A stretch of DNA of 13,632 bases from a virus (IMGVR_UViG_3300014039_000016:136829-150460); one strand, 5' to 3'; shown: positions 790 to 13,375, counted from the stretch's first letter. Made by a program: numbers and translations. Notes: generated from the sequence alone by a model not told the origin.

Positions 790-1446
790 TTAAATATCAA
801 AGTAATTAATTGATGAAATACCCAAGAGTTCATAATTAATATATGAAACAGAAGTATTCCAATTATCGTAAACTCTTAAAAATCTTAAATCTTTCTGTTT
901 TCCTGTCTTATTATTCTTAACTTTAAAAGTCTCTACTCCTACTACCAAAACAGAGTGGTCTTTATAATAATTTCGTCCATCTGTAAGAAGATTTAAAATC
1001 ATTGGATATTGCATATTCTTAATATAGCTTTTAATCTTTTCAAAATTAAAACCTATAACTGGAAAACCTTTTAAAAATTTACTCTTAGCCTTATACTTTG
1101 TATTTGGTATAAACTTATCTAAAGACCTTTGTAATAACGCAGATATTACAAGAGGATTAGTACCTTTTAATTCCCCATTATAACTGCAATACTTTTCCGC
1201 AATCTCCTCGATTATTGAATAAAGTCCTTCAGTAGAAAGATGTTTTATCTGCGCAACTTCTTTAATTAAGGCTGTTGCACTAACAAGAGTACAATCATTC
1301 TTCTTACCATAGTCATTTTGGTCTAGTGCGGGAATTAGTTTTCTTCTGTTTAAATCTACTTTCTCTCGAGATATAACAGTATAACCAAGACTTGTTACAT
1401 ATCTCATTATATTATATTCATGCAAACGCATACCATTATACATCAA
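790..1446 (-). CDS. Hypothetical protein, 218 aa. Possible papain-like (C39/CHAP-like) cysteine-peptidase fold.
   Basis: ORF with an AGAGGTG ribosome-binding site 7 nt upstream of the ATG. It is the last gene of a three-gene operon. A Cys sits in NDCTLVSATAL and about 110 residues later a His sits in DHSVLVVG, an arrangement reminiscent of Cys-His papain-like peptidases. This is a weak, unverified motif call. Confidence 0.55.
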   Translation of the reverse strand: MMYNGMRLHEYNIMRYVTSLGYTVISREKVDLNRRKLIPALDQNDYGKKNDCTLVSATALIKEVAQIKHLSTEGLYSIIEEIAEKYCSYNGELKGTNPLVISALLQRSLDKFIPNTKYKAKSKFLKGFPVIGFNFEKIKSYIKNMQYPMILNLLTDGRNYYKDHSVLVVGVETFKVKNNKTGKQKDLRFLRVYDNWNTSVSYINYELLGISSINYFDI

Positions 1447-1455
1447 ACAACACCT

Positions 1456-1740
1456 CTATATCTGAAAATTTACCGCTCTTGATTTCGCGTTCATCCAGTT
1501 CTTATATTTCCTCATTGCTGTTAAAGACTTCCAACCCCATGAAACAAAAGAACCATCTTCTTTAATTGTTACGACATCTGGCTTAAAATCCTTTATCAAC
1601 ATTCTCAGAAAATCATCGACTGATATATTAAGTACTCGCGCGGGAATTACCCATTTTTCCACATTGGTAGGAAAACTACTAGTATGCTCACAATACCAAA
1701 CACCACTTGCACCTTGCCATTCTTCCAAACGATATAACAT
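1456..1740 (-). CDS. Hypothetical protein, 94 aa
   Basis: ORF with an AAGGAGGTG ribosome-binding site directly upstream. Co-oriented and closely spaced with its neighbours. Confidence 0.6.
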   Translation of the reverse strand: MLYRLEEWQGASGVWYCEHTSSFPTNVEKWVIPARVLNISVDDFLRMLIKDFKPDVVTIKEDGSFVSWGWKSLTAMRKYKNWMNAKSRAVNFQI

Positions 1741-1762
1741 TCCCGCACCTCCTTAAATTAAA

Positions 1763-2080
1763 CTAAAAATCTAAATGTAACTCCGCAGCAAGCTTCTTAA
1801 CCGCTTCCTTCTCTGCCTCTGTTGCCTGAATCTTCTGTTCTCCAACTGTTGGGAAAGCTGAAGTCTGAACTCCTGATATATTGACTGTCGCACCTGGAAT
1901 AGCTGTATCTTCTCCTGGCTCAACATTAGTCTTTGCACAAGTTAAAGTTACTTTAATCTGTACCTCAGAACCATCTTCAATCAAAGGAATCCTTATCTCC
2001 TTACCATATCTAAAAGAATTATCGAAAGTTGATAACAACTTCTCTTCAATATATGTCTTGCTACTTGCACCTTTAGCCAT
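1763..2080 (-). CDS. Hypothetical protein, 105 aa. First gene of the operon.
   Basis: ORF with an AAGGAGA ribosome-binding site 9 nt upstream of the ATG, immediately downstream of promoter 2114-2142. Confidence 0.65.
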   Translation of the reverse strand: MAKGASSKTYIEEKLLSTFDNSFRYGKEIRIPLIEDGSEVQIKVTLTCAKTNVEPGEDTAIPGATVNISGVQTSAFPTVGEQKIQATEAEKEAVKKLAAELHLDF

Positions 2081-2113
2081 ATCTTTTTATCTCCTTATCT
2101 TTATTACATATAT

Positions 2114-2142
2114 ATTATATCATAAAATTTTATAAAAATCAA
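2114..2142 (-). promoter_or_regulatory. sigma-A-type promoter, family B. -35 TTGATT, 17-nt spacer, -10 TGaTATAAT.
   Basis: Minus strand reads TTGATTTTTATAAAATTTTATGATATAAT, followed by the conserved leader ATATATGTAATAAAGATAAGGAGA. Confidence 0.7.
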
Positions 2143-3135
2143 TTATAAATATGAACGCGTTGACTTCGGATGATGTTTGATTTTACAATTGCCGCAAAGC
2201 ATATATACATGATTCAATCCCTCTATCCAATATCTATCATCGCCCGCCTTAAAGATACGACCACAATAGTAACATTCTGTTACATCTTCCATTTTTAACG
2301 GCTTCGGAACATATGAATCACCTCTATAATTGTTTGGATTAAATTTTGGATATTCCTTTGGGATATACTCATAAGTCTTATGTCTACGAAGCTTCTGATT
2401 ATCCTTTAACATAGTCTTAACTCTTTCAATAGAGTCTGACAAGAAGTTTAAATTAATCCTTTCCATATCCATATGTTCATCAAAGTACCCAACAGAAAGA
2501 TTAACTGCGGCAATGCCCCACACTGGAGCTATTGTACTTATATCTGAAAAAGTTCCTGTCTCAGTTTCCCAACCAAATGAATTTATATATTCCTCAAATA
2601 ATTTATTATCACAGCCATAGAAAACGCAATCCTTCTCTCCTCTTCTATCTAACTGAATAAGATAATCACAATCTTTATTTGGTTCTGGATAATCTTCAAC
2701 AAATGCAGATGCCCCACTTCCGCCATATTCTTCATCATGTGTAAAAATAATAACTGCGGGTAAGAGACCTGCCTGCAAGATGCTAATGATACTATAAACG
2801 CCCGCCCTGTCATCTGCACCCAGTCCGCAAGTTCCTATAATTGTTGACTTATCTTTATCATAAAACATACTTTCTCTTGTTGGTGGTAACTCAAAGACAG
2901 TATCTAAATGTGCTAATAATCCAATATGACTTTTCTTAGGATTGCTTGTCTTAGCATATATATAATTCTCTGTTTCCACTACTTTATACTTATATCCTTT
3001 TAAAAGAACAACAAGTAAATCATGTAGTTCGTACTCCTTTAAACAAAGCAAATCCACAAAAGTTCTCAAATCATCTTTAGCTTCTTTTATTTTTATATAT
3101 TCCTTATATGCCCATTCTAATCTATTCTTTGTCAT
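2143..3135 (-). CDS. Clan MH (M20/M28/M42-like) zinc metallopeptidase/deacylase-like protein with a C-terminal CxxC...CxxC zinc ribbon, 330 aa
   Basis: Motifs appear in the order expected for co-catalytic zinc peptidases: AHLDTV (His-x-Asp metal ligand), GADDRAG (bridging Asp), HDEEYGG (Glu-Glu), then later acidic and His residues. The H-to-D-to-EE spacings of about 33 and 33 residues match M20-type enzymes. The C-terminus carries CYYCGR...CGNCK. The start overlaps the stop of the upstream gene by 14 nt. Confidence 0.6.
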   Translation of the reverse strand: MTKNRLEWAYKEYIKIKEAKDDLRTFVDLLCLKEYELHDLLVVLLKGYKYKVVETENYIYAKTSNPKKSHIGLLAHLDTVFELPPTRESMFYDKDKSTIIGTCGLGADDRAGVYSIISILQAGLLPAVIIFTHDEEYGGSGASAFVEDYPEPNKDCDYLIQLDRRGEKDCVFYGCDNKLFEEYINSFGWETETGTFSDISTIAPVWGIAAVNLSVGYFDEHMDMERINLNFLSDSIERVKTMLKDNQKLRRHKTYEYIPKEYPKFNPNNYRGDSYVPKPLKMEDVTECYYCGRIFKAGDDRYWIEGLNHVYMLCGNCKIKHHPKSTRSYL

Positions 3136-3985
3136 CTATATCCTCTTTTCTTTTCTCTTTATATTCTAATCCTTTTTCTGCAAGTGACCTCGCAACATGT
3201 TCTGCGGCAATGCATATTTGACAACCTGAAGAAGTATATCCGCATCTTTTGTGACAATTTTTTCTAATCTGCCCGAAAGTAGGTATAATTGAAGAATTTA
3301 TTTCTATATTGTCCTCAGGATTGTAACCACTGATAATTAAATTTAGAGGACCTTTCCAGCTCTGTTCCTTATATATTTTATATAAAGTATTCTGTTTATC
3401 TACAGGACCAAAAAACTCCATAACATCAACACAATCTTCATAATATTTTACATCTTCTGGTCTAATAAAAAACTTAGTAATTGATTTAATGCCATCTGCT
3501 CGACTAACGCTGCTCTGTGCTACATTAGGAAACACTCTGATTTTAACCTTATTCTTGCAGATATCATATTTAATGTCAGATAGGAAAAAAGCAAGTTCAT
3601 CTGTTATATATACATCTGTAACGCCTTCAGATATATACTGATTTAGTGCATCTATTGTATTTACCTTTTCACAATAAAAGAAAGGAAGCTTATTTTCTTC
3701 TACTCTTCTCATACATTCAACTGTTCTTGATATCATAAAAGTTATATTAGGATGTATTTCATAGCACATTTTAAAAACATTAATTGTTTGTTTAAGTTCT
3801 ATAGTAATCATATGTGTAACATCCACCACAATTCTCAAATCTTGTCTTTTACTTTTTACAAAATCAATAAGCGCAGATGCGTACTTTGTAAGTATTGGAT
3901 ATTTATTAAAATCATATTTAATAATAATTTCCTGTATTTCATCTTCATATGCAAAACCTTTAAACCAATTTATAGCATAGTTCAT
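3122..3985 (-). CDS. Hypothetical protein, 287 aa, with a C-terminal Cys cluster (C-x3-C-x6-C-x2-C...H)
   Basis: ORF with an AAAGGAGA ribosome-binding site 9 nt upstream. Its end overlaps the start of the downstream gene. The C-terminal CHKRCGYTSSGCQIC cluster suggests metal binding. I recognise no fold. Confidence 0.6.
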   Translation of the reverse strand: MNYAINWFKGFAYEDEIQEIIIKYDFNKYPILTKYASALIDFVKSKRQDLRIVVDVTHMITIELKQTINVFKMCYEIHPNITFMISRTVECMRRVEENKLPFFYCEKVNTIDALNQYISEGVTDVYITDELAFFLSDIKYDICKNKVKIRVFPNVAQSSVSRADGIKSITKFFIRPEDVKYYEDCVDVMEFFGPVDKQNTLYKIYKEQSWKGPLNLIISGYNPEDNIEINSSIIPTFGQIRKNCHKRCGYTSSGCQICIAAEHVARSLAEKGLEYKEKRKEDIDDKE

Positions 3986-4012
3986 TTATCACATCTCCTT
4001 TAAGCTAAAATA

Positions 4013-4040
4013 GGGAAGAAAACATTTCTGCTTCCTTCCC
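4013..4040 (-). terminator. Weak hairpin plus T-tract between CDS 4060-4485 and CDS 3122-3985. Possible attenuator or partial terminator.
   Basis: GGGAAG(GAAG) pairs with CTTCC(C) in a hairpin, followed on the minus strand by TATTTTA. No promoter copy lies downstream, so read-through into gene 3122-3985 is expected. Confidence 0.3.
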
Positions 4041-4059
4041 TCAGAACTGAAATATTATA

Positions 4060-4485
4060 TTACTCTGCGTCAGTCTCTTCAGATACACCAGCCGCGAGTG
4101 CATATCCCATAACTCTACGAGTATCACGCTTTACCTGCTCCTTACGAGCTTCACCTATCTGAACTAGCTGTGAAAGTCTAGCACCAACCTTAGCCACTGT
4201 AAGCTCACCAGTTTCATCTGTAATCTGCTCAAAAATCTCATCTCTTGTCTGAAGCTCTTCTGTTAAAACCTTTTTAACAACCTCTCTAAGAGCATCTCCC
4301 TCAGCCGCCTTTTCTGCTGCCTTCTCCTTAGCTCTTTCCTTCTTAGCCTCAAGCTGCGCAACTGTACTATCAACATAATTAATCACATCAGAATCCTGAA
4401 CATCACCATCAAAAACCATATTTCCAATATTAGCCTTAATTGTTTCAAGAATCATTGCCTTTGTAATTTTAACTGTCTCTGCCAT
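4060..4485 (-). CDS. Hypothetical Ala/Glu/Lys-rich protein, about 141 aa
   Basis: ORF directly downstream of promoter 4530-4558. The AAGGAGAT ribosome-binding site favours the second ATG (MAETVK...). Local GC content of about 45% is noticeably above the rest of the window. The sequence is probably coiled-coil, for example AQLEAKKERAKEKAAEKAAEG. Confidence 0.6.
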   Translation of the reverse strand: MAETVKITKAMILETIKANIGNMVFDGDVQDSDVINYVDSTVAQLEAKKERAKEKAAEKAAEGDALREVVKKVLTEELQTRDEIFEQITDETGELTVAKVGARLSQLVQIGEARKEQVKRDTRRVMGYALAAGVSEETDAE

Positions 4486-4529
4486 AATCATTATCTCCTT
4501 TTTCTTATCTTTATCTTTATTACATATAT

Positions 4530-4558
4530 ATTATATCATAAAATTTTTAAGAAATCAA
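4530..4558 (-). promoter_or_regulatory. sigma-A-type promoter, family B. -35 TTGATT, 17-nt spacer, -10 TGaTATAAT.
   Basis: Minus strand reads TTGATTTCTTAAAAATTTTATGATATAAT, followed by the leader ATATATGTAATAAAGATAAAG. Confidence 0.7.
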
Positions 4559-4574
4559 TTATTCTTAAAAGTTC

Positions 4575-4617
4575 TATATATGTAAGAAAGAAGCTTTCTA
4601 TCTTTCTTACATATATA
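4575..4617 (-). terminator. 17-bp perfect inverted repeat with a 9-nt loop. Probable intrinsic terminator for the upstream operon, or an operator site.
   Basis: TATATATGTAAGAAAGA, then AGCTTTCTA, then TCTTTCTTACATATATA. On the minus strand it is followed by GAACTTTT. It sits between two tandem promoter copies, and its right arm overlaps the -10 and +1 of promoter 4617-4645. Confidence 0.45.
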
Positions 4618-4645
4618 TTATACCATAAAATTTTCTAAACTTCAA
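4617..4645 (-). promoter_or_regulatory. sigma-A-type promoter, family B copy. -35 TTGAAG, 17-nt spacer, -10 TGgTATAAT. It is embedded in the 3' end of CDS 4635-6626 and fires into the palindrome.
   Basis: Minus strand reads TTGAAGTTTAGAAAATTTTATGGTATAAT. The -35 lies within the last three codons of the 663-aa gene. Confidence 0.55.
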
Positions 4646-6626
4646 ATTTTTTAAGATTACTAAAGAAATATTTTTCAACTTCTTTTTCATCTACCTTCCC
4701 ATTATTAATAAAGGTCATTGAAGTTAATCTTGATTCATTAAATATACTACTAAGATAGTAGTAACTGTAAACATAACAATCTCTAATAAGCATCTCTTTT
4801 TTATGGTCTCTAAAATATCGTAAACATGCAGGACACATATAAAGAGGTTCTGCATTTCTGCCCTCTGGTAATAAACGAGTCTCATTAAATTCTGCTGCTT
4901 TAGGCGAAGTTCCTGCAGTGTTAGGCTTTAAATTTTCATAACAATATTTCAAATCCTTAAAACGATTCTCATATTCATAACTAATCTTGTTTTCATCTCT
5001 CCAAAAACCACAATTATACGCTTTTTGGTCAGCTTCTTTTTCTGTAAGCATATATTTCTTAACATCATCATCTTTTAAATAAAAAGCAGCAATATTCGAC
5101 TCTCTTTCTATAGGAGTTTCTCCTAAGAGAAAAGGCTTTCCGCAGCAAGGGCATATATAATAACCTTTAATGCAATTTCTACATCTCGTAACAGTGACAT
5201 CATCATTATAATCTTCATCCCATGAAGAATAATCAGAAATATCAAAAGTGAAAAGATTCTCAGGACCTACAAAATCTCCGCAATGTTCACATTTCTTAGT
5301 ATTGGAACATTCTTTACAGATTAAATCTTCCGTATTTTTATATCTATCATTCCAATCTGGCTCATCATAATCATCATGGTCAGTATCAAACTCAAGTAAT
5401 GGTTTTCCGCAACTAATACAGATAACAGGTCCTGATATATTAATCTTTCTAGTATGATGAATTGGATTGCGGACGCACCAATAACCATAATAGTTATCAT
5501 TACACATATCATTATACATAGCATTATTAGTAAAGTAAATCTTCTTTGGGATAAAGTTATTCCTATCCTTGCTATTCTCCAAATCTCTATCAATTATATA
5601 ATCATCAAGAGAATTAACATTAAGCATATCCTTATATGGCTCAATACCAAACTTATAAGTCCAACCAAGATTCTTTTCCGCCAATTCTCGGATAACTTCA
5701 ATTAACTTCTTGCTAAAAGTATCATTCTTATAAGGGTAAGACTTACCTGATACAACGATATCCTTATTAACAAAAAGTAAACTTCTCCATTTTTTATCAT
5801 TCCAAAAAGGATTGTCTTTAGCATCTGAATTATCAGATTCCAATCCCATCATTCTACTATTGCTTTCCAGATAACAACAGAGTGCATTATTAGAGTTCAT
5901 CATTTCATATGAACCAACCCTGTAACATCCGCTACGCTTCCACGACATGCAAGAAGACCAATCACTATTGTTATCACTCATAGTCATAAAGTCTAATGGG
6001 TGAATTGAAAAACAAAGATTACCCGCAAGTTCTTTCTCATTTAAAATGAGAGAAATCTTAATACGGACTTTCTCAAAGAAATCTATAATTTCCTTATCTG
6101 CGTTGCAATACTTTAATATTTTTCCAACAGCTCTGAATACTTTTGTCCCTGAAGGAATTTTTCTTTCCTTTAAAGACCCAGTATCATCAACTGGGCGCAG
6201 AAAAATATCATAATTCGTTAAATTATTAATTAATGCACGCTTTTCAAAGATATGGTCAAAAAGCGGCGGTATCCAATATCCGGCTTCATCAATACAGTGT
6301 CTTAAAGTGCTTAAAGCATCAACAGAATCCAAATAAACACTACATTCCTTTGCGATATCGTTTTCTGGTTTTTCATAATTAAATGGAATCTTGTAAATCA
6401 TCTGATTTCCAAGTAACTTATATAGAGTATTCTTACAAATACTCCACTTCTCAAGGAATTCTTTTAAAGGAATATACATTCCCTTATCTACTGGTGCGGC
6501 AATATAATCATTTATTTCATCAGACCAATGATTAATGCCATGAATACCCCATCTATAATAATACTCCGAAATCTTCTGAATATCTTCCTCCGTTAATTTT
6601 TCATATAAATCTATTCTTTCTTTCAT
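4635..6626 (-). CDS. Large hypothetical protein, 663 aa, with a multi-CxxC (zinc-ribbon-rich) C-terminal half
   Basis: Long uninterrupted ORF. Its start is coupled to the upstream gene (TAA-T-ATG) with an AAGGAG ribosome-binding site 11 nt upstream. It contains at least eight CxxC or CxC pairs, for example CISCGKP, CKECSNTKKCEHCG, CRNCIKGYYICPCCGKP and CPACLRY. I recognise no catalytic motif. Confidence 0.75.
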   Translation of the reverse strand: MKERIDLYEKLTEEDIQKISEYYYRWGIHGINHWSDEINDYIAAPVDKGMYIPLKEFLEKWSICKNTLYKLLGNQMIYKIPFNYEKPENDIAKECSVYLDSVDALSTLRHCIDEAGYWIPPLFDHIFEKRALINNLTNYDIFLRPVDDTGSLKERKIPSGTKVFRAVGKILKYCNADKEIIDFFEKVRIKISLILNEKELAGNLCFSIHPLDFMTMSDNNSDWSSCMSWKRSGCYRVGSYEMMNSNNALCCYLESNSRMMGLESDNSDAKDNPFWNDKKWRSLLFVNKDIVVSGKSYPYKNDTFSKKLIEVIRELAEKNLGWTYKFGIEPYKDMLNVNSLDDYIIDRDLENSKDRNNFIPKKIYFTNNAMYNDMCNDNYYGYWCVRNPIHHTRKINISGPVICISCGKPLLEFDTDHDDYDEPDWNDRYKNTEDLICKECSNTKKCEHCGDFVGPENLFTFDISDYSSWDEDYNDDVTVTRCRNCIKGYYICPCCGKPFLLGETPIERESNIAAFYLKDDDVKKYMLTEKEADQKAYNCGFWRDENKISYEYENRFKDLKYCYENLKPNTAGTSPKAAEFNETRLLPEGRNAEPLYMCPACLRYFRDHKKEMLIRDCYVYSYYYLSSIFNESRLTSMTFINNGKVDEKEVEKYFFSNLKKFEV

Positions 6627-6627
6627 A

Positions 6628-6840
6628 TTACATATAACTCCTTATTAAATTAACGACTCTGACTTTATCGTCCTCCATTAAATCAATATAAGCCTGATTA
6701 TCTACTATCTCCCCAATTAAAAGCTGCGGGTCCCGCCCTGCTTCTAGTGCCTGCTTACATTGACGCATTATTTCATTTGCATCATCATCGCTCTGCATAA
6801 TCATATAATCAAAGGCATCTCCCATTCCGAACATACTCAT
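6628..6840 (-). CDS. Small acidic protein, 70 aa, net charge about -8
   Basis: ORF coupled to the upstream gene through an ATGA overlap, with an AAGGAG ribosome-binding site. Asp/Glu-rich. Confidence 0.55.
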   Translation of the reverse strand: MSMFGMGDAFDYMIMQSDDDANEIMRQCKQALEAGRDPQLLIGEIVDNQAYIDLMEDDKVRVVNLIRSYM

Positions 6841-7196
6841 ACACCAAGCTCCTTTCCGCAGTACTCTTTAATGAAACTTTCATGTCCAAGATTACAAACA
6901 ATATTATCTAATTCATTAGTTTCCATATCCTTGTACTCATCTTTAATCTCATAAATGTTCCAATATAATTCCTCAGCTGAACCATCCCATTCTGGAAATT
7001 CTCCTGACTCTTCATTATAATCTGACTGAGACATCGCATATTCATCTTCAAGACCATAATTAGTAATAAGGTCATACGCCATTTCTTTACCCATAGCATT
7101 ACCTTCATCAAGAGAATTGATTTCAGTTACACACATGTCCTCAATTCCATGTAAACCCTGATACATTCCTTCAGTTGCGTAAATAAATACTTTCAT
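6837..7196 (-). CDS. Highly acidic protein, 119 aa, about 29 Asp/Glu against 6 Lys. Candidate DNA-mimic or anti-restriction protein.
   Basis: ORF with an AAGAGGT ribosome-binding site 7 nt upstream. It is the first gene after promoter 7229-7257. Its size and net charge of about -23 resemble Ocr/ArdA-type DNA mimics. This is a charge-based inference only. Confidence 0.6.
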   Translation of the reverse strand: MKVFIYATEGMYQGLHGIEDMCVTEINSLDEGNAMGKEMAYDLITNYGLEDEYAMSQSDYNEESGEFPEWDGSAEELYWNIYEIKDEYKDMETNELDNIVCNLGHESFIKEYCGKELGV

Positions 7197-7228
7197 AAAT
7201 CATACCTCTTTTCTTATTTTCTATATAT

Positions 7229-7257
7229 ATTATATCAAAAATTTTAAAAGAAATAAA
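7229..7257 (-). promoter_or_regulatory. sigma-A-type promoter, family B. -35 TTTATT, 17-nt spacer, -10 TGaTATAAT. Its -35 is formed by the U-tract of the upstream terminator.
   Basis: Minus strand reads TTTATTTCTTTTAAAATTTTTGATATAAT. Confidence 0.6.
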
Positions 7258-7280
7258 GCTGAGCTAAGTTACCCAGCTTT
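7255..7280 (-). terminator. Rho-independent terminator of the 7712-7279 operon
   Basis: 7-bp stem AAAGCTG/CAGCTTT with a 12-nt loop, followed on the minus strand by TTTATTTCTTTT. It overlaps the stop codon of CDS 7279-7500. Confidence 0.55.
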
Positions 7281-7500
7281 AATCATCAAAACCGTCATAG
7301 TAATCTTCATCATAGAATCCATCTTCATCATAATACCCATAAGCCATATAATCTTCATCATCATAGTCTTCGCGATAACATTCAGCTATCCACGGACAAT
7401 TTATACAGTTAGGACGGTCCGCGCAATTTTTACTCTGCTCTATATCTTCAGGTGGTCTCTTGGGATATTCACTAATCCTCTTTGCATCTATATCTTCCAT
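7279..7500 (-). CDS. Acidic protein, 73 aa, with a four-Cys motif and a D/E/Y low-complexity C-terminal tail
   Basis: The AGGAGGT ribosome-binding site is 6 nt upstream of the internal ATG (MEDIDAK...). The track's longer start would include that ribosome-binding site. The protein contains CADRPNCINCPWIAEC and the tail YREDYDDEDYMAYGYYDEDGFYDEDYYDGFDD. Confidence 0.55.
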   Translation of the reverse strand: MEDIDAKRISEYPKRPPEDIEQSKNCADRPNCINCPWIAECYREDYDDEDYMAYGYYDEDGFYDEDYYDGFDD

Positions 7501-7511
7501 AGTTATACCTC

Positions 7512-7712
7512 CTAACACATAATCATTGAATCAAGAATTGACTGCTCATGCATTTCCGCACATGATACAGAAGTTCCAACAGCTAAATCTTCAACATAGC
7601 AAACCTCGCCTAAGTGATTTACATACTGACCTGGTTCAAAAAACTTATCTGTAATTAAAGTATGTCTTGCTCCATTACCATTTACTAAAGTGTATTCAAA
7701 TACCATATGCAT
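7512..7712 (-). CDS. Small hypothetical protein, about 65-67 aa
   Basis: The track ORF runs up through the promoter. The real start is probably ATGCATATG (MHMVFEY...) downstream of the AGAGAGG ribosome-binding site. Confidence 0.45.
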   Translation of the reverse strand: MHMVFEYTLVNGNGARHTLITDKFFEPGQYVNHLGEVCYVEDLAVGTSVSCAEMHEQSILDSMIMC

Positions 7713-7740
7713 TACCTCTCTTTTCTTATTTTCTATATAT

Positions 7741-7769
7741 ATTATATCAAAAAATTTAAAAAATATCAA
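7741..7769 (-). promoter_or_regulatory. sigma-A-type promoter, family B. -35 TTGATA, 17-nt spacer, -10 TGaTATAAT.
   Basis: Minus strand reads TTGATATTTTTTAAATTTTTTGATATAAT. Confidence 0.65.
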
Positions 7770-8014
7770 TAGCGCACAGTAAGAATGTTAGTTGATACAT
7801 TATACGACCATGCAGCAACTAAAAACGCATTTTCATTTTCTACATACTGCGGCAATGTATATCTAATCTCCACGCCTTCTTTCTTAGCTGAGCCAAGCCC
7901 GCTCATTCTGTCTGTCTTAATTGGCACAAAACAGATGTGCATATCTGAAACCTGTACTGTTGACATGATATCTTCTACAAGAGAAGATAATATTGTTATT
8001 CTTTTTTCTATCAT
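7766..8014 (-). CDS. Hypothetical protein, 82 aa
   Basis: ORF. Its start codon directly abuts the stop of the upstream gene (TAATG). Confidence 0.5.
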   Translation of the reverse strand: MIEKRITILSSLVEDIMSTVQVSDMHICFVPIKTDRMSGLGSAKKEGVEIRYTLPQYVENENAFLVAAWSYNVSTNILTVRY

Positions 8015-8211
8015 TAATAATCATTCCTTTCATGTTTAGAATATTTTTCAAGCTTTCTGCGGCGATTGTCTACTCTTGCAGGTGCAGTTCCACGCTTAGG
8101 TAAGTACTTGCCGCAATGTTGACAAGCTTTTCTAAATGTTCCTTCTCTGCCTTTTGAGCATTGACCTTCACAAATATAATACTGACATATTATTTCTCTA
8201 TCTCTTGCCAT
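8015..8211 (-). CDS. Small basic zinc-ribbon protein, about 65 aa
   Basis: A GAGGT ribosome-binding site lies 7 nt upstream of the internal ATG (MARDREII...). It contains CQYYICEGQC...CQHCGK, then a Lys/Arg-rich tail. A nucleic-acid-binding role is possible. Confidence 0.5.
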
Positions 8212-8221
8212 TATAATTACC

Positions 8222-8680
8222 TCACTTTTCATATTTTTTTATTAAATCATTAGTTTCATCTTTGATAGGTGATAAAGGGTTATAGTCTTTATCCCACTTA
8301 ATCTCTAAATTAGTAATTATTCCTCTTAAACGATAACTATAAAATAAATAATCAAAATTCCAATATCCGCCATAAATTGCATCAGTATATAATACTTTAT
8401 ATCCTTGTACTTCATACTTCTCTAACAAGGTTAAAAATAAATCAAATTGTTTCTTATATTTTAAGTATTTTTTAGAGTTTTTATTTATCTCATATGAGAC
8501 ACCTCTATCAAATACTAATAAACGATTAATAAGGAGACTCTGCTCATTAATATCACAAGCTGAAAGAATTTCATTATCTATTTTTTTCTCCCATTTTTTC
8601 AGAAAATGCTTGTCTGCTCTTGTTAGAGTTACCTCACTATTTTCCTGAGATAATCTTTGTGCAGTATGTAGCGATATCAT
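8222..8680 (-). CDS. Hypothetical protein, 152 aa
   Basis: ORF with an AAGAGGTG ribosome-binding site. First gene after promoter 8714-8742. Confidence 0.6.
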   Translation of the reverse strand: MISLHTAQRLSQENSEVTLTRADKHFLKKWEKKIDNEILSACDINEQSLLINRLLVFDRGVSYEINKNSKKYLKYKKQFDLFLTLLEKYEVQGYKVLYTDAIYGGYWNFDYLFYSYRLRGIITNLEIKWDKDYNPLSPIKDETNDLIKKYEK

Positions 8681-8713
8681 ATTTATTCACCTCTTTCTCT
8701 TTTCTATATAAAT

Positions 8714-8742
8714 ATTATATCATATTTTTTTATAAAAATAAA
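8714..8742 (-). promoter_or_regulatory. sigma-A-type promoter, family A. -35 TTTATT from the terminator U-tract, 17-nt spacer, -10 TGaTATAAT.
   Basis: Minus strand reads TTTATTTTTATAAAAAAATATGATATAAT. Confidence 0.6.
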
Positions 8743-8763
8743 GGAGGCATAAAAGCCTCCTTT
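8740..8763 (-). terminator. Rho-independent terminator of the 10226-8773 operon
   Basis: 9-bp GC-rich stem AAAGGAGGC/GCCTCCTTT with a 6-nt loop, followed on the minus strand by TATTTTTAT. Confidence 0.65.
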
Positions 8764-8772
8764 CCGCACATT

Positions 8773-9150
8773 TTATTTAATGAATATTCTTAATATCTGT
8801 AGTATAATATTTAGTATACCCGCGATAATTAATAATAAATAAAAACAATTTATACTCTTGATTTCTTTTTTCTTGTCCTCTTTTTTCTCATAAACAAAAG
8901 ATAATATCAAAAAAATAACTGCTGCGAGTGCAAGACATAAAATTAAAATTGCTATAATCCAGAAAATAACTTTTAATACTAACAAGTGTCCTCCTTCCAC
9001 AGACTCTACTAAAGCTGAGAATCCTATAAAATATGTCCAAATCGCAAATAAAAAATCAAATATTCTTTCTCCTCGATTTTTTAAGATAACTGTTACTGCA
9101 ACACCTGCAATAAAAATTATAATACATGACAATTTTATCCAAAATTCCAT
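8773..9150 (-). CDS. Integral membrane protein, 125 aa, about four predicted TM helices
   Basis: ORF with an AAGGAGGT ribosome-binding site. Long hydrophobic stretches are separated by short charged loops. Confidence 0.6.
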   Translation of the reverse strand: MEFWIKLSCIIIFIAGVAVTVILKNRGERIFDFLFAIWTYFIGFSALVESVEGGHLLVLKVIFWIIAILILCLALAAVIFLILSFVYEKKEDKKKEIKSINCFYLLLIIAGILNIILQILRIFIK

Positions 9151-9163
9151 CTATTTTACCTCC

Positions 9164-9310
9164 TTAATCCATAAATGTAAAAAAACAATATAAAAACATG
9201 AAAATAAAAATTGTAACTAATAGAATTAAAGGTTTATTTATTATAACACAAAATACTATTATAGCAATAATAATTAGAGTTATAATTATTAATAATGTGC
9301 TATCGTCCAT
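9164..9310 (-). CDS. Small hydrophobic membrane peptide, 48 aa. Not in the ORF track.
   Basis: ATG preceded by an AAAGGAGT ribosome-binding site. Sequence is MDDSTLLIIITLIIIAIIVFCVIINKPLILLVTIFIFMFLYCFFTFMD. It packs tightly between its neighbours. Confidence 0.4.
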   Translation of the reverse strand: MDDSTLLIIITLIIIAIIVFCVIINKPLILLVTIFIFMFLYCFFTFMD

Positions 9311-9324
9311 AATCTATACTCCTT

Positions 9325-9498
9325 TTAATTTCCAACATAACCTAAACTAAAGCCCATTATAAACATTAATGAAGCTACTGCTAAACCAGTTGAGATTTTA
9401 TATACAATTTCATTTGTTGTTACACAACTTATGGTATAACAAATTAATAACATAATGATACTAATTATTATACCTATACCTAACGCCGCACTCTCCAT
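9325..9498 (-). CDS. Small hydrophobic membrane peptide, 57 aa. Not in the ORF track.
   Basis: ATG preceded by a GGGAGGT ribosome-binding site. Sequence is MESAALGIGIIISIIMLLICYTISCVTTNEIVYKISTGLAVASLMFIMGFSLGYVGN. Confidence 0.4.
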   Translation of the reverse strand: MESAALGIGIIISIIMLLICYTISCVTTNEIVYKISTGLAVASLMFIMGFSLGYVGN

Positions 9499-9521
9499 GT
9501 ATTTCTACAACCTCCCATAAA

Positions 9522-10226
9522 TTATAAATATTCATTCCAGCCTGAAAAGTCAAGAATAATAGGGTCGCCATTTTCTCTGAAACCAATATTACCATTATGT
9601 AAATCTTCAACTACATTAGGAAATTCACTTTCTAAGAAGTCAATAAGTTTATCAACCATAGCCTTTCCATATCTTTCAATAGCAGCAGCAACCCATGAAG
9701 AATCTGCAAAACAATAATATTTTGAATCTGAATTAACAAAATTTAATGTTTCATCTTCTGAGACAGGACAATATTCATAGAAGTCTAATACTCTTTCCTG
9801 TTTGATAACAGTACCAGACTCACATTCTCCCATAATCTCTGTTTTTGGGAAAAAGATATCTAAACCATTCTCTTTTGCAGCTTCATAAACCTCATATTCT
9901 GTTAAACAATAGTCCCAACCTCGGTCCTCAGAATTGTCTGCGCCTCTAAATCTTGTAAAATAATCGTGGTCTACTGATTCATCATAATCCCACTTACCAG
10001 AATAAGGAACTTTGAGAACAGAGCTGCAGCCGGAAACAACAGCAACAGCCTTAGTTGCACCACGATATGCGCCGCCTGCAATCTTAGCATCTTTTAAAGC
10101 TTCTGAAATTAAAATTGTATTTTCTTCATCATCTTCATCATCGTCCCAGCCAAATTTCTCAGGAACTTTCTTTACAATTTCATTAAACACTTTTGTTAAT
10201 TTATCTTCTAATAATAATGTTGCCAT
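9522..10226 (-). CDS. Hypothetical protein, 234 aa, with an acidic N-terminal region
   Basis: ORF with an AAGAGGT ribosome-binding site. First gene after promoter 10262-10290. Confidence 0.65.
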   Translation of the reverse strand: MATLLLEDKLTKVFNEIVKKVPEKFGWDDDEDDEENTILISEALKDAKIAGGAYRGATKAVAVVSGCSSVLKVPYSGKWDYDESVDHDYFTRFRGADNSEDRGWDYCLTEYEVYEAAKENGLDIFFPKTEIMGECESGTVIKQERVLDFYEYCPVSEDETLNFVNSDSKYYCFADSSWVAAAIERYGKAMVDKLIDFLESEFPNVVEDLHNGNIGFRENGDPIILDFSGWNEYL

Positions 10227-10261
10227 ATTTATATACCTCTTTTCCTTTTCTTTATATAAAT

Positions 10262-10290
10262 ATTATAACATAATTTTTTACAAAAATAAA
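10262..10290 (-). promoter_or_regulatory. sigma-A-type promoter, family A. -35 TTTATT, 17-nt spacer, -10 TGtTATAAT.
   Basis: Minus strand reads TTTATTTTTGTAAAAAATTATGTTATAAT. Confidence 0.6.
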
Positions 10291-10311
10291 GCGGAGTATA
10301 GGACCCCGCTT
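10289..10311 (-). terminator. Rho-independent terminator of the 11373-10310 operon
   Basis: 6-7-bp stem AAGCGG/CCGCTT followed on the minus strand by TTTATTTTTG. It overlaps the stop codon of CDS 10310-10828. Confidence 0.5.
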
Positions 10312-10828
10312 AGTCTATCTTAAATTGAAAATCTCCGCCACTTTCATCAAGGTAATCATCTATTGATACATTAGGGTTTATTCTCTCAAGGACTTTGTCT
10401 GTATGAGAGCGAGAAAGAGAAATAAGTGCTTTTTTATTAGCTTTTGTGCGGCAAGTGGTACAAATACAATCACCAAAAGTAGCTATAGCTGTTGGAGTAA
10501 ATTCATATACATAATTAAAATCTCTTCCGTTATGCATCTTATTCTTATGTTCATCATACCACTTTTTTATTGATTCTTTCTCTTTTTCATTTACCGTAAA
10601 AGACTGATTTAAGATTTTTCTTAATCTATCAATTTCACTTTTCAATTTAGCAAGCTCCGCGTCTTTATAATGTTCGCTCTTGAGAGACTTGTTTTCCGCA
10701 ATTAACTCATCATTTTCTTTTAAAAGTCTTTTCATATTCCATTCAAGCTGAAAAAGAGATTCATCTACTTCTTTTTCTGTGCTTATAATTTTAATAGGAT
10801 TATCTTCAATATAACATATTCCCGCCAT
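10310..10828 (-). CDS. Hypothetical coiled-coil protein, 172 aa, with a C-terminal CxC..C motif. Paralogue of the upstream gene.
   Basis: ORF. Its start overlaps the stop of the upstream gene (TAATG), with a GGAAGGAG ribosome-binding site. It has an N-terminal heptad-rich region and the motif FGDCICTTCRTKA. Confidence 0.6.
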   Translation of the reverse strand: MAGICYIEDNPIKIISTEKEVDESLFQLEWNMKRLLKENDELIAENKSLKSEHYKDAELAKLKSEIDRLRKILNQSFTVNEKEKESIKKWYDEHKNKMHNGRDFNYVYEFTPTAIATFGDCICTTCRTKANKKALISLSRSHTDKVLERINPNVSIDDYLDESGGDFQFKID

Positions 10829-11373
10829 TATTCTTCTCCTTCCCAGGGGTATTTAGTTACTCTATATGAAACACCCTTCTTCCGCATTAATTCTAAAAGC
10901 TCATCATAGTTTAAATCTCTATGATTATTATATAATATCTTTGCACATTTAGCACAATAGCAAGTAGCTTCAGTTCCATTAATACCTGGTTTAAATACGA
11001 AGAATCTGTCTTTTGGTTTTAGGGGCGATTCTTTACGCTCTTGTATGTGCGCTTCCTCTCTATGATGCTGCCACCATTCTGTTATTCCGTAATTCTCATA
11101 TGTTGAAATAGTGAAGCTATTATAGTAACGCTCCTTATATTCTGCTAATTCTGCTTGTGTTTGAAGAAGGTCTTCTTTCAATTTCTTTATCTCTTCATTC
11201 TTATAAAGTTCTTCATCTAAGTTATTTACATAATTGCGCATTTCTAAAACTCTATCTTTAAGAGTGTTAAGACTTTCTGCGGTGTTGTTAAATGCTTCAT
11301 CAATAGTAGGTTTCTGCTCTTTCGTAAATAAGTCCTTTACTTTTTTACATTTGTTTAAATCATATGTCTCCAT
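10829..11373 (-). CDS. Hypothetical coiled-coil protein, 181 aa, with a C-terminal CxC..C motif
   Basis: ORF with a TAGGAGGA ribosome-binding site 7 nt upstream. It has an N-terminal coiled coil and the motif TEATCYCAKCAKI. Confidence 0.6.
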
Positions 11374-11404
11374 AAAATATTCCTCCTATTGTTTTTCTAC
11401 ATAA

Positions 11405-11433
11405 ATTATATCATATTTTTTTATAAAAATCAA
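11405..11433 (-). promoter_or_regulatory. sigma-A-type promoter, family A. -35 TTGATT, 17-nt spacer, -10 TGaTATAAT.
   Basis: Minus strand reads TTGATTTTTATAAAAAAATATGATATAAT. A short GC hairpin (AGCGGCGAAGCGCT) lies just upstream. Confidence 0.7.
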
Positions 11434-11568
11434 GCGGCGAAGCGCTCTTTAAAGAAACTTGTAGGGACCTATCATGAATTTTATAGACCCAACAGCCGCA
11501 GCAAGAAAAATAAGGCTTAATTGGAGAAAACGAAGGATTTCTGTATTTCCGAACAAAAGCGATTATCT

Positions 11569-11645: not shown

Positions 11646-11819
11646 ATGATTATTGTTTGTGATATAAATTGTAAGTATAGAAATTCCAATGGCTTTTGTA
11701 CAAAAGACATTGTTCATATAGATAATAAATGTATTTGTAATGAAATGTATAAACCAACAGAGAAGATTGAGCGGAAACCGCAGATTGGTGAAACTTTAAT
11801 CTTGACTGAAGAAACTTAA
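11646..11819 (+). CDS. Small Cys-rich protein, 57 aa. Not in the supplied ORF track.
   Basis: An AAGGAGG ribosome-binding site lies 9 nt upstream of the ATG. Sequence is MIIVCDINCKYRNSNGFCTKDIVHIDNKCICNEMYKPTEKIERKPQIGETLILTEET. It is the first gene after a strong promoter. Confidence 0.5.
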   Translation: MIIVCDINCKYRNSNGFCTKDIVHIDNKCICNEMYKPTEKIERKPQIGETLILTEET

Positions 11820-11833
11820 AGGAGGGTTTCCGC

Positions 11834-12037
11834 GTGACATTAGAAGAATTAGCAGAAGAATTGGGTGTGAAACCTAATTATTTAAGAAAAAGATTTCAAG
11901 ATGTTAAAAAGAATAGAGAAAAGATAGGTATAATTATTGAAAAAGTAGGAAGAGCGGCTTCCGCGGAATATGGTATAAAAACATGGTATGATAGTGAAAT
12001 TAGATATGAGCATCTTGACCCAGATGATTTTGAATAA
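11834..12037 (+). CDS. Small HTH DNA-binding protein, 67 aa, GTG start
   Basis: An AAGGAGGG ribosome-binding site lies 8 nt upstream of the GTG. It has a helix-turn-helix-like segment LEELAEELGVKPNYLRKRF. It is paralogous to the N-terminus of the 260-aa protein. Confidence 0.6.
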   Translation: MTLEELAEELGVKPNYLRKRFQDVKKNREKIGIIIEKVGRAASAEYGIKTWYDSEIRYEHLDPDDFE

Positions 12038-12051
12038 AAAGGAGAAAATAA

Positions 12052-12294
12052 ATGAGTAACAAAAGAACAGTAAAGGAGATATTAACTCCTAATGAATATA
12101 TGGCATATGAAGCAATTTTAAAGAAATTGGTTCAAGGAGAACAAACTTGTGTAAATGTTTCACAGTTTGCAGATGAAATACACCTTTCCCGCACAAGTAT
12201 TAGTAGTATGTTAAAGAAGTTAGATTTGATTGGTGTTTTTGAAGTTAAAAGTGCGGGAATGAGAGGAACTTATATCAAGTTTTTACCTAATTAA
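12052..12294 (+). CDS. Winged-HTH-type small regulator, 80 aa
   Basis: An AAAGGAGA ribosome-binding site lies 8 nt upstream. It has an HTH-like segment VSQFADEIHLSRTSISSMLKKLDLIGV. Confidence 0.6.
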   Translation: MSNKRTVKEILTPNEYMAYEAILKKLVQGEQTCVNVSQFADEIHLSRTSISSMLKKLDLIGVFEVKSAGMRGTYIKFLPN

Positions 12295-12307
12295 AGAAAA
12301 TATTACT

Positions 12308-12400
12308 TTGGATTTTCAAATGAGAATGAGAATGAGAGGATTAATAAGATTGGAGCGAAGCGGAAATCTTTTAATCCCGAATTCTCATTTGAAAATCCAA
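12308..12400. repeat. About 93-nt near-perfect hairpin. The outer inverted repeat is 20 bp and perfect. The inner inverted repeat is 14 bp with one mismatch. The loop is 13 nt. One arm carries a (TGAGAA)3 tandem bulge.
   Basis: TTGGATTTTCAAATGAGAAT at 12308-12327 is the exact reverse complement of 12381-12400. The inner pair is GGATTAATAAGATT against AATCTTTTAATCC. Confidence 0.6.
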
Positions 12401-12408
12401 GACTTAGA

Positions 12409-12440
12409 GATGCGAACTTGTTCGCATCGACTTTATATAA
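12409..12440 (+). terminator. Rho-independent terminator for the rightward HTH operon
   Basis: 8-bp stem GATGCGAA/TTCGCATC with a CTTG tetraloop, followed by GACTTTATATAA. Confidence 0.5.
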
Positions 12441-12504
12441 AGAGTATTGAGTTTTTAAATTATTTATATCTAGGAAGTTAAAAGTTCAATACTCTTTATA
12501 TAAA
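12432..12504. repeat. 19-bp perfect inverted repeat with a 35-nt spacer. Candidate operator or origin element.
   Basis: TTTATATAAAGAGTATTGA at 12432-12450 is the reverse complement of 12486-12504. Confidence 0.55.
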
Positions 12505-12592
12505 AAATGGAAAAAGTGTCACCAATTTTTAACTTTCAGAAGAATAATCATTTAAAATTGTGACATTTTTATATAAAGGAGAGTAACATATA

Positions 12593-13375
12593 ATGAATAT
12601 AAAAGAAGTAAGTGAAGCTTTAGGAATTGCGGAATCTACATTAAAAAATAATTATAGAAGAACTGCGGAAAGTTTATTAAAGAAAGGTATTATTTTAAAT
12701 AAAGAAGGAAGGGGCATTTCCGCAGAATATACAATAGAATATGATATGAGTTTTAAAGATAATAGAGCTTTAACTATATTTGATGAAAAGAAAGAAATAT
12801 ATTTACAAGATGATATGTTAAAGATGATAGATTGGAATCTCTTGATATTAGTAGGAGTTTGTTTAACGCCTTTGTTAACTTTTAGAGGAAGTTATAAAGA
12901 TTTTTTAAATTATGTTGGAGTATTACCATCTGCCGCGAATATTAATAAGTTAAAGGAAGTATTAGTTGAAATGGATGCTGATTATATTGGTTATTATCCT
13001 GATAAAACAGATGAACAATATTTTACCGCGTCTTTATATAGGAGTGTTGAGAAGAAATATAAGGTTTCAATTATTAAGTTGCGGAAATGTAAAGAAATTC
13101 AAGAAAAATATCATGGAAGAAGCTTCATTCCGCTATTGAAAACTTGGTTAGCTACTGAAGAAGCAGTAAAGAATCAACCTTATACTATTGATGATTTGAT
13201 TGAATTGACAGGATTATCTAAGAGTACTATTGTTAAAGCTAATAGGCAGTTAAGAGATGAAAATGTTTATAGGTCAGAGAAAGATTATATTCCGGAGATG
13301 AAAATATGCCGAGGGGTAAATACTGATATCAATGGATTTTTTGATGAAATCCCAACAGATTTACCTAGAAAATGA
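12593..13375 (+). CDS. 260-aa protein with N-terminal and C-terminal HTH-like segments. Putative regulator or replication initiator.
   Basis: An AAAGGAGAG ribosome-binding site lies 10 nt upstream. Its first 50 residues are paralogous to the 67-aa HTH protein, including the shared pattern LG..L....GII..K.GR..SAEY.I. The C-terminus carries LIELTGLSKSTIVKANRQL. It is flanked by palindromes upstream and iterons downstream. Confidence 0.65.
   Translation: MNIKEVSEALGIAESTLKNNYRRTAESLLKKGIILNKEGRGISAEYTIEYDMSFKDNRALTIFDEKKEIYLQDDMLKMIDWNLLILVGVCLTPLLTFRGSYKDFLNYVGVLPSAANINKLKEVLVEMDADYIGYYPDKTDEQYFTASLYRSVEKKYKVSIIKLRKCKEIQEKYHGRSFIPLLKTWLATEEAVKNQPYTIDDLIELTGLSKSTIVKANRQLRDENVYRSEKDYIPEMKICRGVNTDINGFFDEIPTDLPRK

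Follow-up and report, generated by a model that had tools for sequence, protein, structure and literature searches.

What do three small acidic proteins, encoded one after another on a viral genome, do for the virus, and do they do it together? The question is raised by a stretch of 13,632 nucleotides (nt) of DNA (IMGVR_UViG_3300014039_000016:136829-150460), which we refer to as the window and whose numbering is used for all coordinates. Three open reading frames (ORFs) of interest, all on the minus strand, encode proteins of 119, 70 and 73 amino acids (aa). The original prediction, made from the sequence of the window alone, saw them as a cluster of strongly acidic proteins, and proposed that they are DNA mimics or an anti-restriction module. 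Our analysis confirmed the sizes and the net charges (-23, -8 and -17, respectively), and the isoelectric point (pI), whose calculation had been suggested, is approximately 4.05 for each protein, which is the floor of the calculator. However, we found that the three genes do not belong together. The best explanation that we can offer, though a tentative one, is that the 119-aa and 73-aa proteins act as polyanionic decoys and that the 70-aa protein is a partner of a 663-aa protein encoded directly next to it.

Related phage loci supplied 1,524 distinct ORFs as a background for acidity, and fractions were calculated for those of 50-150 aa. A net charge per residue at or below -0.114, the value of the 70-aa protein, is found in 16% of these small ORFs, one at or below -0.19 in 4%, and one at or below -0.23 in 1%. 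By this distribution of charge densities, the 119-aa and 73-aa proteins are extreme, but the 70-aa protein is ordinary. A 64-aa protein encoded nearby (-0.11 per residue) equals it in acidity. The description as strongly acidic therefore fits two of the three proteins. The argument from composition that had been made for DNA mimicry likewise applies to the 119-aa and 73-aa proteins, and dense conserved carboxylates with few basic residues, a trait of DNA mimics, are present in the 119-aa family and in the tail of the 73-aa protein. For the 119-aa protein this argument is strengthened, because strong acidity is kept across a large and divergent family.

We searched 86 loci for the three genes using local hidden Markov models and jackhmmer. 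The genes have three different distributions, are separated in other phages and do not co-occur as a module, and we therefore rejected the idea of a three-gene unit. In the corrected picture the 119-aa and 73-aa genes are separate, and the 70-aa gene pairs with the 663-aa gene.

The 119-aa and 73-aa proteins

Only 8 relatives of the 119-aa protein emerged from a word-indexed search. When a profile was run against 1.84 billion representative proteins, 469 clusters passed E<=1e-3 and 174 passed E<=1e-10, nearly all of 100-130 aa. Since clusters were defined at 50% identity, the size of the family is given as at least 469 clusters. Its full signature is [KR]xxIYAxExxYxGLHG[IM] ... VxE ... EA..G.EMS..VI.SY ... 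acidic loop ... W.IY.IKDE ... S..EL ... G.E.F[IV]E.YC, in which Y12, G14, G17, L96, F108 and C113 are near-invariant, position 9 is E or D in 100% of sequences, and H16 is conserved in 88%. The best 149 members are all acidic (median net charge -24, range -5 to -33). Their charge per residue stays between -0.25 and -0.14 (5th-95th percentile), with a mean column identity of just 25%.

A confident AlphaFold2 model of the 119-aa protein (local confidence score, pLDDT, 86.5, predicted template modelling score 0.79) has the element order beta-beta-alpha-alpha-beta-alpha-alpha-beta. The acidic residues at positions 27, 30, 31, 34, 38, 42 and 45 of its first helix form a stripe with i+3/i+4 spacing, and a hydrophobic face lies opposite. 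The loop that follows this helix has 10-42 residues in the family, of which 34-57% (43%) are Asp or Glu and at most 3 are basic. That charge is kept despite the 25% column identity, and with an acidic loop of such variable length, argues for selection on the charge itself.

The model matched neither the fold of any solved structure nor a known enzyme. Searches of Pfam and PHROGs with 128 family members gave scattered single matches only, and a literature search with the motif strings of the family returned nothing relevant. The family is uncharacterised and, judging from the model, apparently has a new fold. Its size, its exclusive occurrence in phages and this predicted fold are the main new facts about it. 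Phage exclusivity was addressed with a degenerate DNA pattern for the N-terminal motif, which we ran on IMG/VR and on 596 Gb of bacterial genomes. The pattern matched 38 IMG/VR contigs, mostly of 90-200 kb, and a single contig among the bacterial genomes (L086, CAMELE010000001.1, 163,874 bp), labelled as a metagenome-assembled genome (MAG) of an uncultured Mollicutes. As its size equals that of the phage contigs that carry the family, L086 is probably a phage genome that was binned into the MAG.

Approximately half of the 42 distinct members in the loci that we fetched, a count that includes non-independent close relatives, are located 36-48 nt behind a promoter similar to that of the window, often past a terminator. 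We found no families of neighbouring genes that are conserved across lineages of the 119-aa family. Very similar promoters also occur upstream of its genes in unrelated phage contigs, e.g., L001, L043, L050 and L073. Two variations on the gene were observed. Some members (L048 923-1519, L077 9177-9773 and L078 264-857; protein P0095) carry a conserved C-terminal extension of approximately 90 aa (…DGVGHTTVGKYTVDTC…YETAIW.NP.RMAIPA.YPNR.AAE.GHK.WC…), for which there was no Pfam match. In one sub-lineage (L055 6751-10002, and also L060, L061, L075, L082 and L085) the gene is flanked by one for an acidic, vWA-like protein of 306 aa and one for an adenylosuccinate-synthetase-like protein of 392 aa, tentative labels that come from reading of motifs.

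The 73-aa protein is of a different kind. It was described previously as a Cys4 motif followed by a tail of Asp, Glu and Tyr, and both parts are indeed present. The four-Cys cluster is a probable metal site. The tail (REDYDDEDYMAYGYYDEDGFYDEDYYDGFDD) consists to 48% of Asp and Glu, with 8 Tyr and 1 basic residue, and is encoded with an internal 18-nt repeat of 2.1 copies. We found only six homologues, with 62-92% identity, all in close relatives with the same gene order, and no match in Pfam, PHROGs or NCBIfam; an alternative GTG start would extend the protein to 79 aa. Among the seven members the tail is mostly invariant (YGY..YD.D..YDEDYY.GFDD). It is predicted to be disordered (pLDDT 40-45), in a model that is poor as a whole (49.9) and based on a shallow alignment. 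The ratios of synonymous to nonsynonymous codon differences are 9:1 and 7:2 in the tail, and 11:5 and 10:8 in the N-terminal half. These ratios indicate that the sequence of the tail is under purifying selection, and that it is the most constrained part of the protein. The cluster also resembles a WhiB-like motif (C-x2-C-P-x3-E-C), but Pfam gave no support for this resemblance, and we do not claim it.

Transcription units and the 70-aa protein

The minus strand of the window contains 11 near-identical copies of a promoter element of 45-63 nt, with the form TTGAyw-17-(TG)nTATAAT and, past the -10 element, a conserved ATATATAGAAAA box (Table 1). A terminator hairpin precedes several of the copies, and some copies are fused to its T-run. 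Only two copies, which share an identical 24-nt core (7217-7240 in the downstream copy), fall in the region of the three ORFs. The copy at 7711-7773 drives a unit of two genes that ends at the terminator (7254-7281): first the 64-aa gene and, 11 nt beyond the end of that gene, the 73-aa gene. Three genes are driven by the copy at 7199-7261, namely the 119-aa gene, the 70-aa gene, whose start overlaps the 119-aa stop codon (ATGA), and the 663-aa gene, which starts 1 nt past the 70-aa stop codon. The claim that each of the three genes lies directly behind a strong early promoter of its own is therefore true of the 119-aa gene only. Ribosome-binding sites in the window are strong and of the AGGAGG type. 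In our explanation, the region comprises two transcription units read by host RNA polymerase of the sigma-A type, and from the type of promoter we infer that both are early.

The 70-aa gene appears to belong to its downstream neighbour. Its 20 homologues are mostly more than 85% identical, and the first 16 residues (MSMFGMGDAFDYMIMQ) are invariant even where overall identity is approximately 50%. The 663-aa protein contains 27 Cys, an invariant SIHPLDFMTMSDN.C.W.SCMSW..G.YR.GT.EMMNSP motif and C-terminal CxxC ribbons, and its matches in Pfam and the PDB are to generic zinc ribbons only. In the data searched, its family occurs only in phages, on contigs of 120-240 kb (loci L015-L039), often with 2-3 paralogues per locus, and in most of the loci searched the gene after the 663-like gene encodes a homologue of a 143-aa protein, whose own gene lies at 4060-4491 of the window. 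Of 15 small proteins that start with MF[GD], 10 are encoded directly upstream of 663-like genes, as compared with 29 of all 1,093 small proteins (Fisher p ~9e-14, a value that is inflated by close relatives, although several diverged lineages contribute). The 70-aa protein and the small proteins of L018, L019-21, L024, L032 and L043, encoded in this position, share an N-terminal Met/Phe-rich motif, MF[GD] ... [FL]x[VIM]MQ, even where the remainder cannot be aligned, and the motif may therefore be a short docking peptide for the 663-like protein. In L043, the gene of a homologue of 74 aa (MFDFLHPQGPEFMVMQSS...) lies only 13 nt ahead of a 663-like gene, with the gene of the 119-aa family 5 kb away. 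This arrangement and the MF[GD] association place the 70-aa gene with the 663-aa gene and apart from the acidic pair.

Table 1. Positions of genes, protein segments and transcription signals in the window
Feature	Coordinates	Strand	Remarks
119-aa protein, phage-only polyanionic alpha/beta family	6837..7196	minus	[KR]xxIYAxExxYxGLHG[IM] ... G.E.F[IV]E.YC
73-aa protein, four-Cys N-terminal half and acidic/aromatic tail	7279..7500	minus	ATG behind ribosome-binding site TTAGGAGG
C-x5-C-x2-C-x5-C cluster, residues 26-41 of the 73-aa protein	7378..7425	minus	C26, C32, C35, C41, P36 and W37 invariant in 7/7 members
Asp/Glu/Tyr tail, residues 43-73 of the 73-aa protein	7282..7374	minus	Distinguished by composition, pLDDT, repeat and codon differences
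70-aa protein	6628..6840	minus	Net charge -8; invariant N-terminal peptide MSMFGMGDAFDYMIMQ; translationally coupled to 119-aa gene; 663-aa gene directly next
663-aa Cys-rich protein	4635..6626	minus	Conserved N-terminal domain and CxxC zinc ribbons; co-transcribed with 119-aa and 70-aa genes
64-aa gene	7512..7706	minus	Net charge -7; ATG at 7706 behind GAGAGG; homologues in close relatives only; no known family
Early-type promoter copy	7711..7773	minus	TTGATA-17-TGaTATAAT and ATATATAGAAAA box; 11/12 consensus positions, extended -10
Intrinsic terminator	7254..7281	minus	11-bp stem with 4 GC pairs; T-run extends into next promoter; ends 64/73-aa unit
Early-type promoter copy	7199..7261	minus	Weak -35 (TTTATT); extended -10 TGATATAAT at 7237-7229
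All promoter copies	253-315, 460-522, 731-793, 2084-2146, 4500-4562, 4587-4649, 7199-7261, 7711-7773, 8684-8746, 10232-10294, 11375-11437	minus	

Candidate functions

Taken together, the three proteins might be described as small acidic effectors, presumably early ones, without homology to any characterised example, and they would do different things. The 119-aa protein would be a stoichiometric decoy, made early and abundantly, that occupies the nucleic-acid-binding surface of a putative host protein, such as a defence nuclease, a methyltransferase or a housekeeping DNA- or RNA-binding protein. Its specificity could come from the conserved Y-x-G-L-H-G hairpin and the C-terminal F..YC. In the 73-aa protein, a metal-bound knot of four Cys would carry the disordered, conserved Asp/Glu/Tyr tail as a flexible mimic of single-stranded nucleic acid, which is probably inserted into a basic groove of its target. 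The 70-aa protein would not be a mimic but an accessory partner of the 663-aa protein, probably bound via its N-terminal Met/Phe-rich peptide. We infer decoy action, and every target considered here, from the conserved charge, the early-type expression signals and precedents among phages of Firmicutes.

These precedents are the SPO1 proteins Gp46 and Gp44, and TifA. Gp46 is a globular acidic inhibitor of HU (pI 4.3), which displaces DNA by means of a negative face and one hydrophobic contact (PMC8892312). The window resembles the host-takeover module of SPO1 in having clusters of small genes behind strong sigma-A promoters and strong ribosome-binding sites (PMC8892312, PMC6873191). We found no sequence or fold match to Gp46, although its structure (7by7) is present in the PDB libraries searched, and tblastn also found nothing. 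Homology to SPO1 gp37-gp60 was likewise not seen, as neither megablast nor tblastn matched an isolate phage. The nearest analogue of the 73-aa tail may be the middle domain of Gp44 (residues 56-122), a disordered acidic segment with 57% Asp/Glu and no basic residues that mimics single-stranded DNA and binds RNA polymerase (PMC8208478). In both proteins, a small folded domain at the N-terminus precedes a disordered stretch that contains repeats, approximately 50% Asp/Glu and nearly no basic residues. However, the tail of the 73-aa protein is shorter (31 aa), is rich in Tyr (8/31), shows no homology to Gp44, and sits on a four-Cys cluster, whereas the segment of Gp44 sits on a DNA-binding, helix-turn-helix (HTH)-like domain. 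TifA (Orf65 of Enterococcus phage phi47) is a small protein with 21% Asp/Glu and an electronegative surface, which inhibits DNA-binding defence enzymes, namely type IV restriction enzymes, by direct binding and is not classed as a strict DNA mimic by its authors (PMC11322646). TifA, which is predicted to be SH3-like, and the proteins of the window are alike in being small and acidic. A tblastn comparison of the window proteins with an isolate-phage collection gave no match.

Several points weigh against the decoy explanation. Database, profile and structure searches gave no homology link to any mimic or anti-defence protein that has been characterised. A pure charge mimic would not need the residues that the 119-aa family conserves most (E9, Y12, G14, L15, H16, G17 and C113), which could instead mark a catalytic or metal site. 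The statistics on promoter position and on MF[GD] include close relatives that are not independent. For the 73-aa protein the alignment is shallow (7 close sequences) and the model is unreliable, and the type of promoter is the sole indication of early timing.

The alternative that survives best builds on these conserved residues. Acidity could be incidental, or serve solubility, and the 119-aa protein could act through a site formed by E9, Y12, GLHG and C113, as a small enzyme, a metal-binding regulator or a specific protein-protein inhibitor, with the 73-aa protein acting through its Cys cluster. The near-invariant residues of the 119-aa family do lie outside the acidic ridge, and moderate acidity is common in these regions, where it is seen in 16-21% of small ORFs. 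We nevertheless consider this alternative rather unlikely. A charge that is held at -0.14 to -0.25 per residue despite 25% identity, and an acidic loop of 10-42 residues, would not be expected if acidity were incidental; moreover, the fold matches no known enzyme, and the tail is the most constrained part of the 73-aa protein.

A second alternative is the one originally proposed, namely that the proteins, above all the 119-aa protein, mimic double-stranded DNA in the manner of Ocr and block type I/III restriction-modification or BREX upon genome entry. Ocr (gp0.3 of phage T7) is an all-helical mimic of B-DNA, whose dimer resembles bent B-DNA, and inhibits type I restriction-modification and BREX. 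The comparison with Ocr was apt with regard to size and charge (119 aa and -23, versus 117 aa and -28). Both proteins have approximately 117-119 aa, 24-29% Asp/Glu and only 6 basic residues, and are encoded by the first gene after an early promoter, a position that the gene of the 119-aa family takes in approximately half of its lineages. In charge density the 119-aa protein also resembles the anti-restriction protein ArdA (Tn916 Orf18, PDB 2w82; -0.193 versus -0.194 per residue), so both measures fall within the Ocr/ArdA range. The comparison does not extend to sequence or fold. A profile of 128 family sequences scored 0.2% in hhalign against T7 Ocr, and the score against 2w82 was also 0.2%. 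None of the 128 members had a Pfam match to Ocr or ArdA, no structural match to either, including the three-domain fold of ArdA, was found, and the alpha/beta model contrasts with the all-alpha structure of Ocr. A superficial likeness of the ArdA N-terminus (VYIANLGKYNEGELVG) to FIYATEGMYQGLHG, in which a strand is followed by Y-x-x-G-x-L-x-G, was noticed, but nothing supports it.

In favour of this alternative, the 119-aa family is phage-only and patchy, as genes for counter-defence accessory functions are, and TifA is a precedent for an acidic anti-restriction protein in related phages of Firmicutes (PMC11322646). However, the genes are not found together as a module of three, and nothing favours restriction enzymes as targets over RNA polymerase, HU, AddAB, helicases or others. 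The region, moreover, looks like a host-takeover cluster, a kind of cluster whose products mostly strike housekeeping targets (PMC8892312, PMC8208478). We therefore regard action on restriction or BREX enzymes as fairly improbable, and housekeeping targets as at least as likely.

Third, the N-terminal half of the 73-aa protein could copy or mimic the domain by which the helicase loader DnaI binds zinc and interacts with the helicase, and would then bind the replicative helicase of the host to block or hijack its loading. A profile search of PDB sequences matched this half (window 7380-7497, residues 2-41) to the N-terminal domain of Bacillus subtilis DnaI (2k7r) with E 0.033, BLASTP aligned 13/26 identities including the heptapeptide IEQSKNC, hhalign gave a probability of 82% against that single sequence, and both proteins have a C-x2-C-x5-C element. 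Against a profile of seven DnaI N-terminal sequences, however, the hhalign probability drops to 5%. DnaI of Listeria, Staphylococcus and Enterococcus lacks conservation of the matched residues and Cys, no match to the Pfam family DnaI_N was obtained even with sequences from which the tail was removed, and an E-value of 0.03 is weak given several PDB searches. As the lead is unsupported at the family level (the 5% in hhalign and the lack of a Pfam match), we rejected it as very improbable. Finally, a structural or assembly role for these acidic proteins, as scaffold, decoration or internal proteins, is hardly credible: scaffolding and internal proteins are commonly acidic, but these genes lie among small genes with sigma-A-type promoters, near HTH regulators and transfer RNAs (tRNAs), the 13.6 kb contain no virion genes, and the homology to structural proteins that the original prediction named as evidence against itself was looked for in Pfam and PHROGs, with the window proteins and 128 family members, and not found.

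The decoy explanation can be extended to a bolder claim, which we find doubtful on balance. In this claim, the 119-aa proteins would be an undescribed, widespread family confined to large gut and rumen phages, with a new alpha/beta fold whose conserved acidic ridge and loop make them a new class of DNA-mimicking inhibitors of a host defence or nucleoid protein, and the 73-aa protein would be a new type of inhibitor, in which a four-Cys metal knot carries a conserved tail that imitates single-stranded nucleic acid. If the 119-aa family does consist of decoys for a DNA-binding host protein, the few known DNA mimics and counter-defence proteins would be joined by a large and structurally new family, and the signature [KR]xxIYAxExxYxGLHG ... 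F[IV]E.YC could be used to find such genes in metagenomes. The phages concerned are abundant in the human gut and almost unstudied. The Tyr-rich acidic tail offers a compact system in which to ask how specificity can arise in a polyanion that is short and disordered.

Phage, host and neighbouring genes

The window (GC content approximately 31%) belongs to a large phage of approximately 150 kb from the human gut, whose host is probably a low-GC Firmicute; a host among the Firmicutes is suggested by the use of Shine-Dalgarno sequences and the type of promoter. The exact 70-aa protein and the entire gene order recur on human-gut metagenome contigs of 150-156 kb, including those from Hadza samples, and on IMG/VR contigs of 145-147 kb. 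A megablast search with the window found no match among isolate phages. With tblastn, neither the individual proteins, nor a 2,812-aa concatenate of family members, nor the family consensus found anything real in these phages; a weak match in Pseudomonas phage Dolphis was rejected because it lies on the strand opposite the annotated gene. Neither for the three proteins nor for their neighbours did Pfam, PHROGs, NCBIfam or PADLOC return a meaningful match, and no virion gene was identified in the window.

Twenty minus-strand genes, most encoding fewer than 240 aa, extend from 790 to 11373. Genes for HTH proteins diverge from this block on the plus strand (11646-13375). One of the encoded proteins (67 aa) is HTH_3-like, another (80 aa) has a CodY-type HTH (E 2e-9), and another (260 aa) gave two weak HTH matches. 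These proteins may be regulators of the early region. Beyond the other end of the block, tRNA-Asn(GTT) and tRNA-Met(CAT) are encoded at 184-255 and 590-665 on the minus strand, each just downstream of its own promoter copy. Behind the copy at 460-522, no ORF of at least 40 aa and no RNA was detected.

Within the block, a minus-strand gene at 2143-3135 encodes a 330-aa M28/M20-like metallopeptidase, which matches phrog_34186 (E 2e-46) and is extended at its C-terminus by a Cys-rich segment. Its nearest relatives among isolates, at 42% identity, are in Enterococcus phages of 134-142 kb. Another strongly acidic protein, which the original prediction had omitted, is encoded at 9522-10226, also on the minus strand. 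It has 234 aa, a net charge of -27 and a DDDEDDEE run, its gene is the first after the promoter copy at 10232-10294, and homologues are present in L018-L021. The same unit contains three genes in a row (8773-9498, minus strand) for hydrophobic proteins of 57, 48 and 125 aa, which look like membrane proteins.

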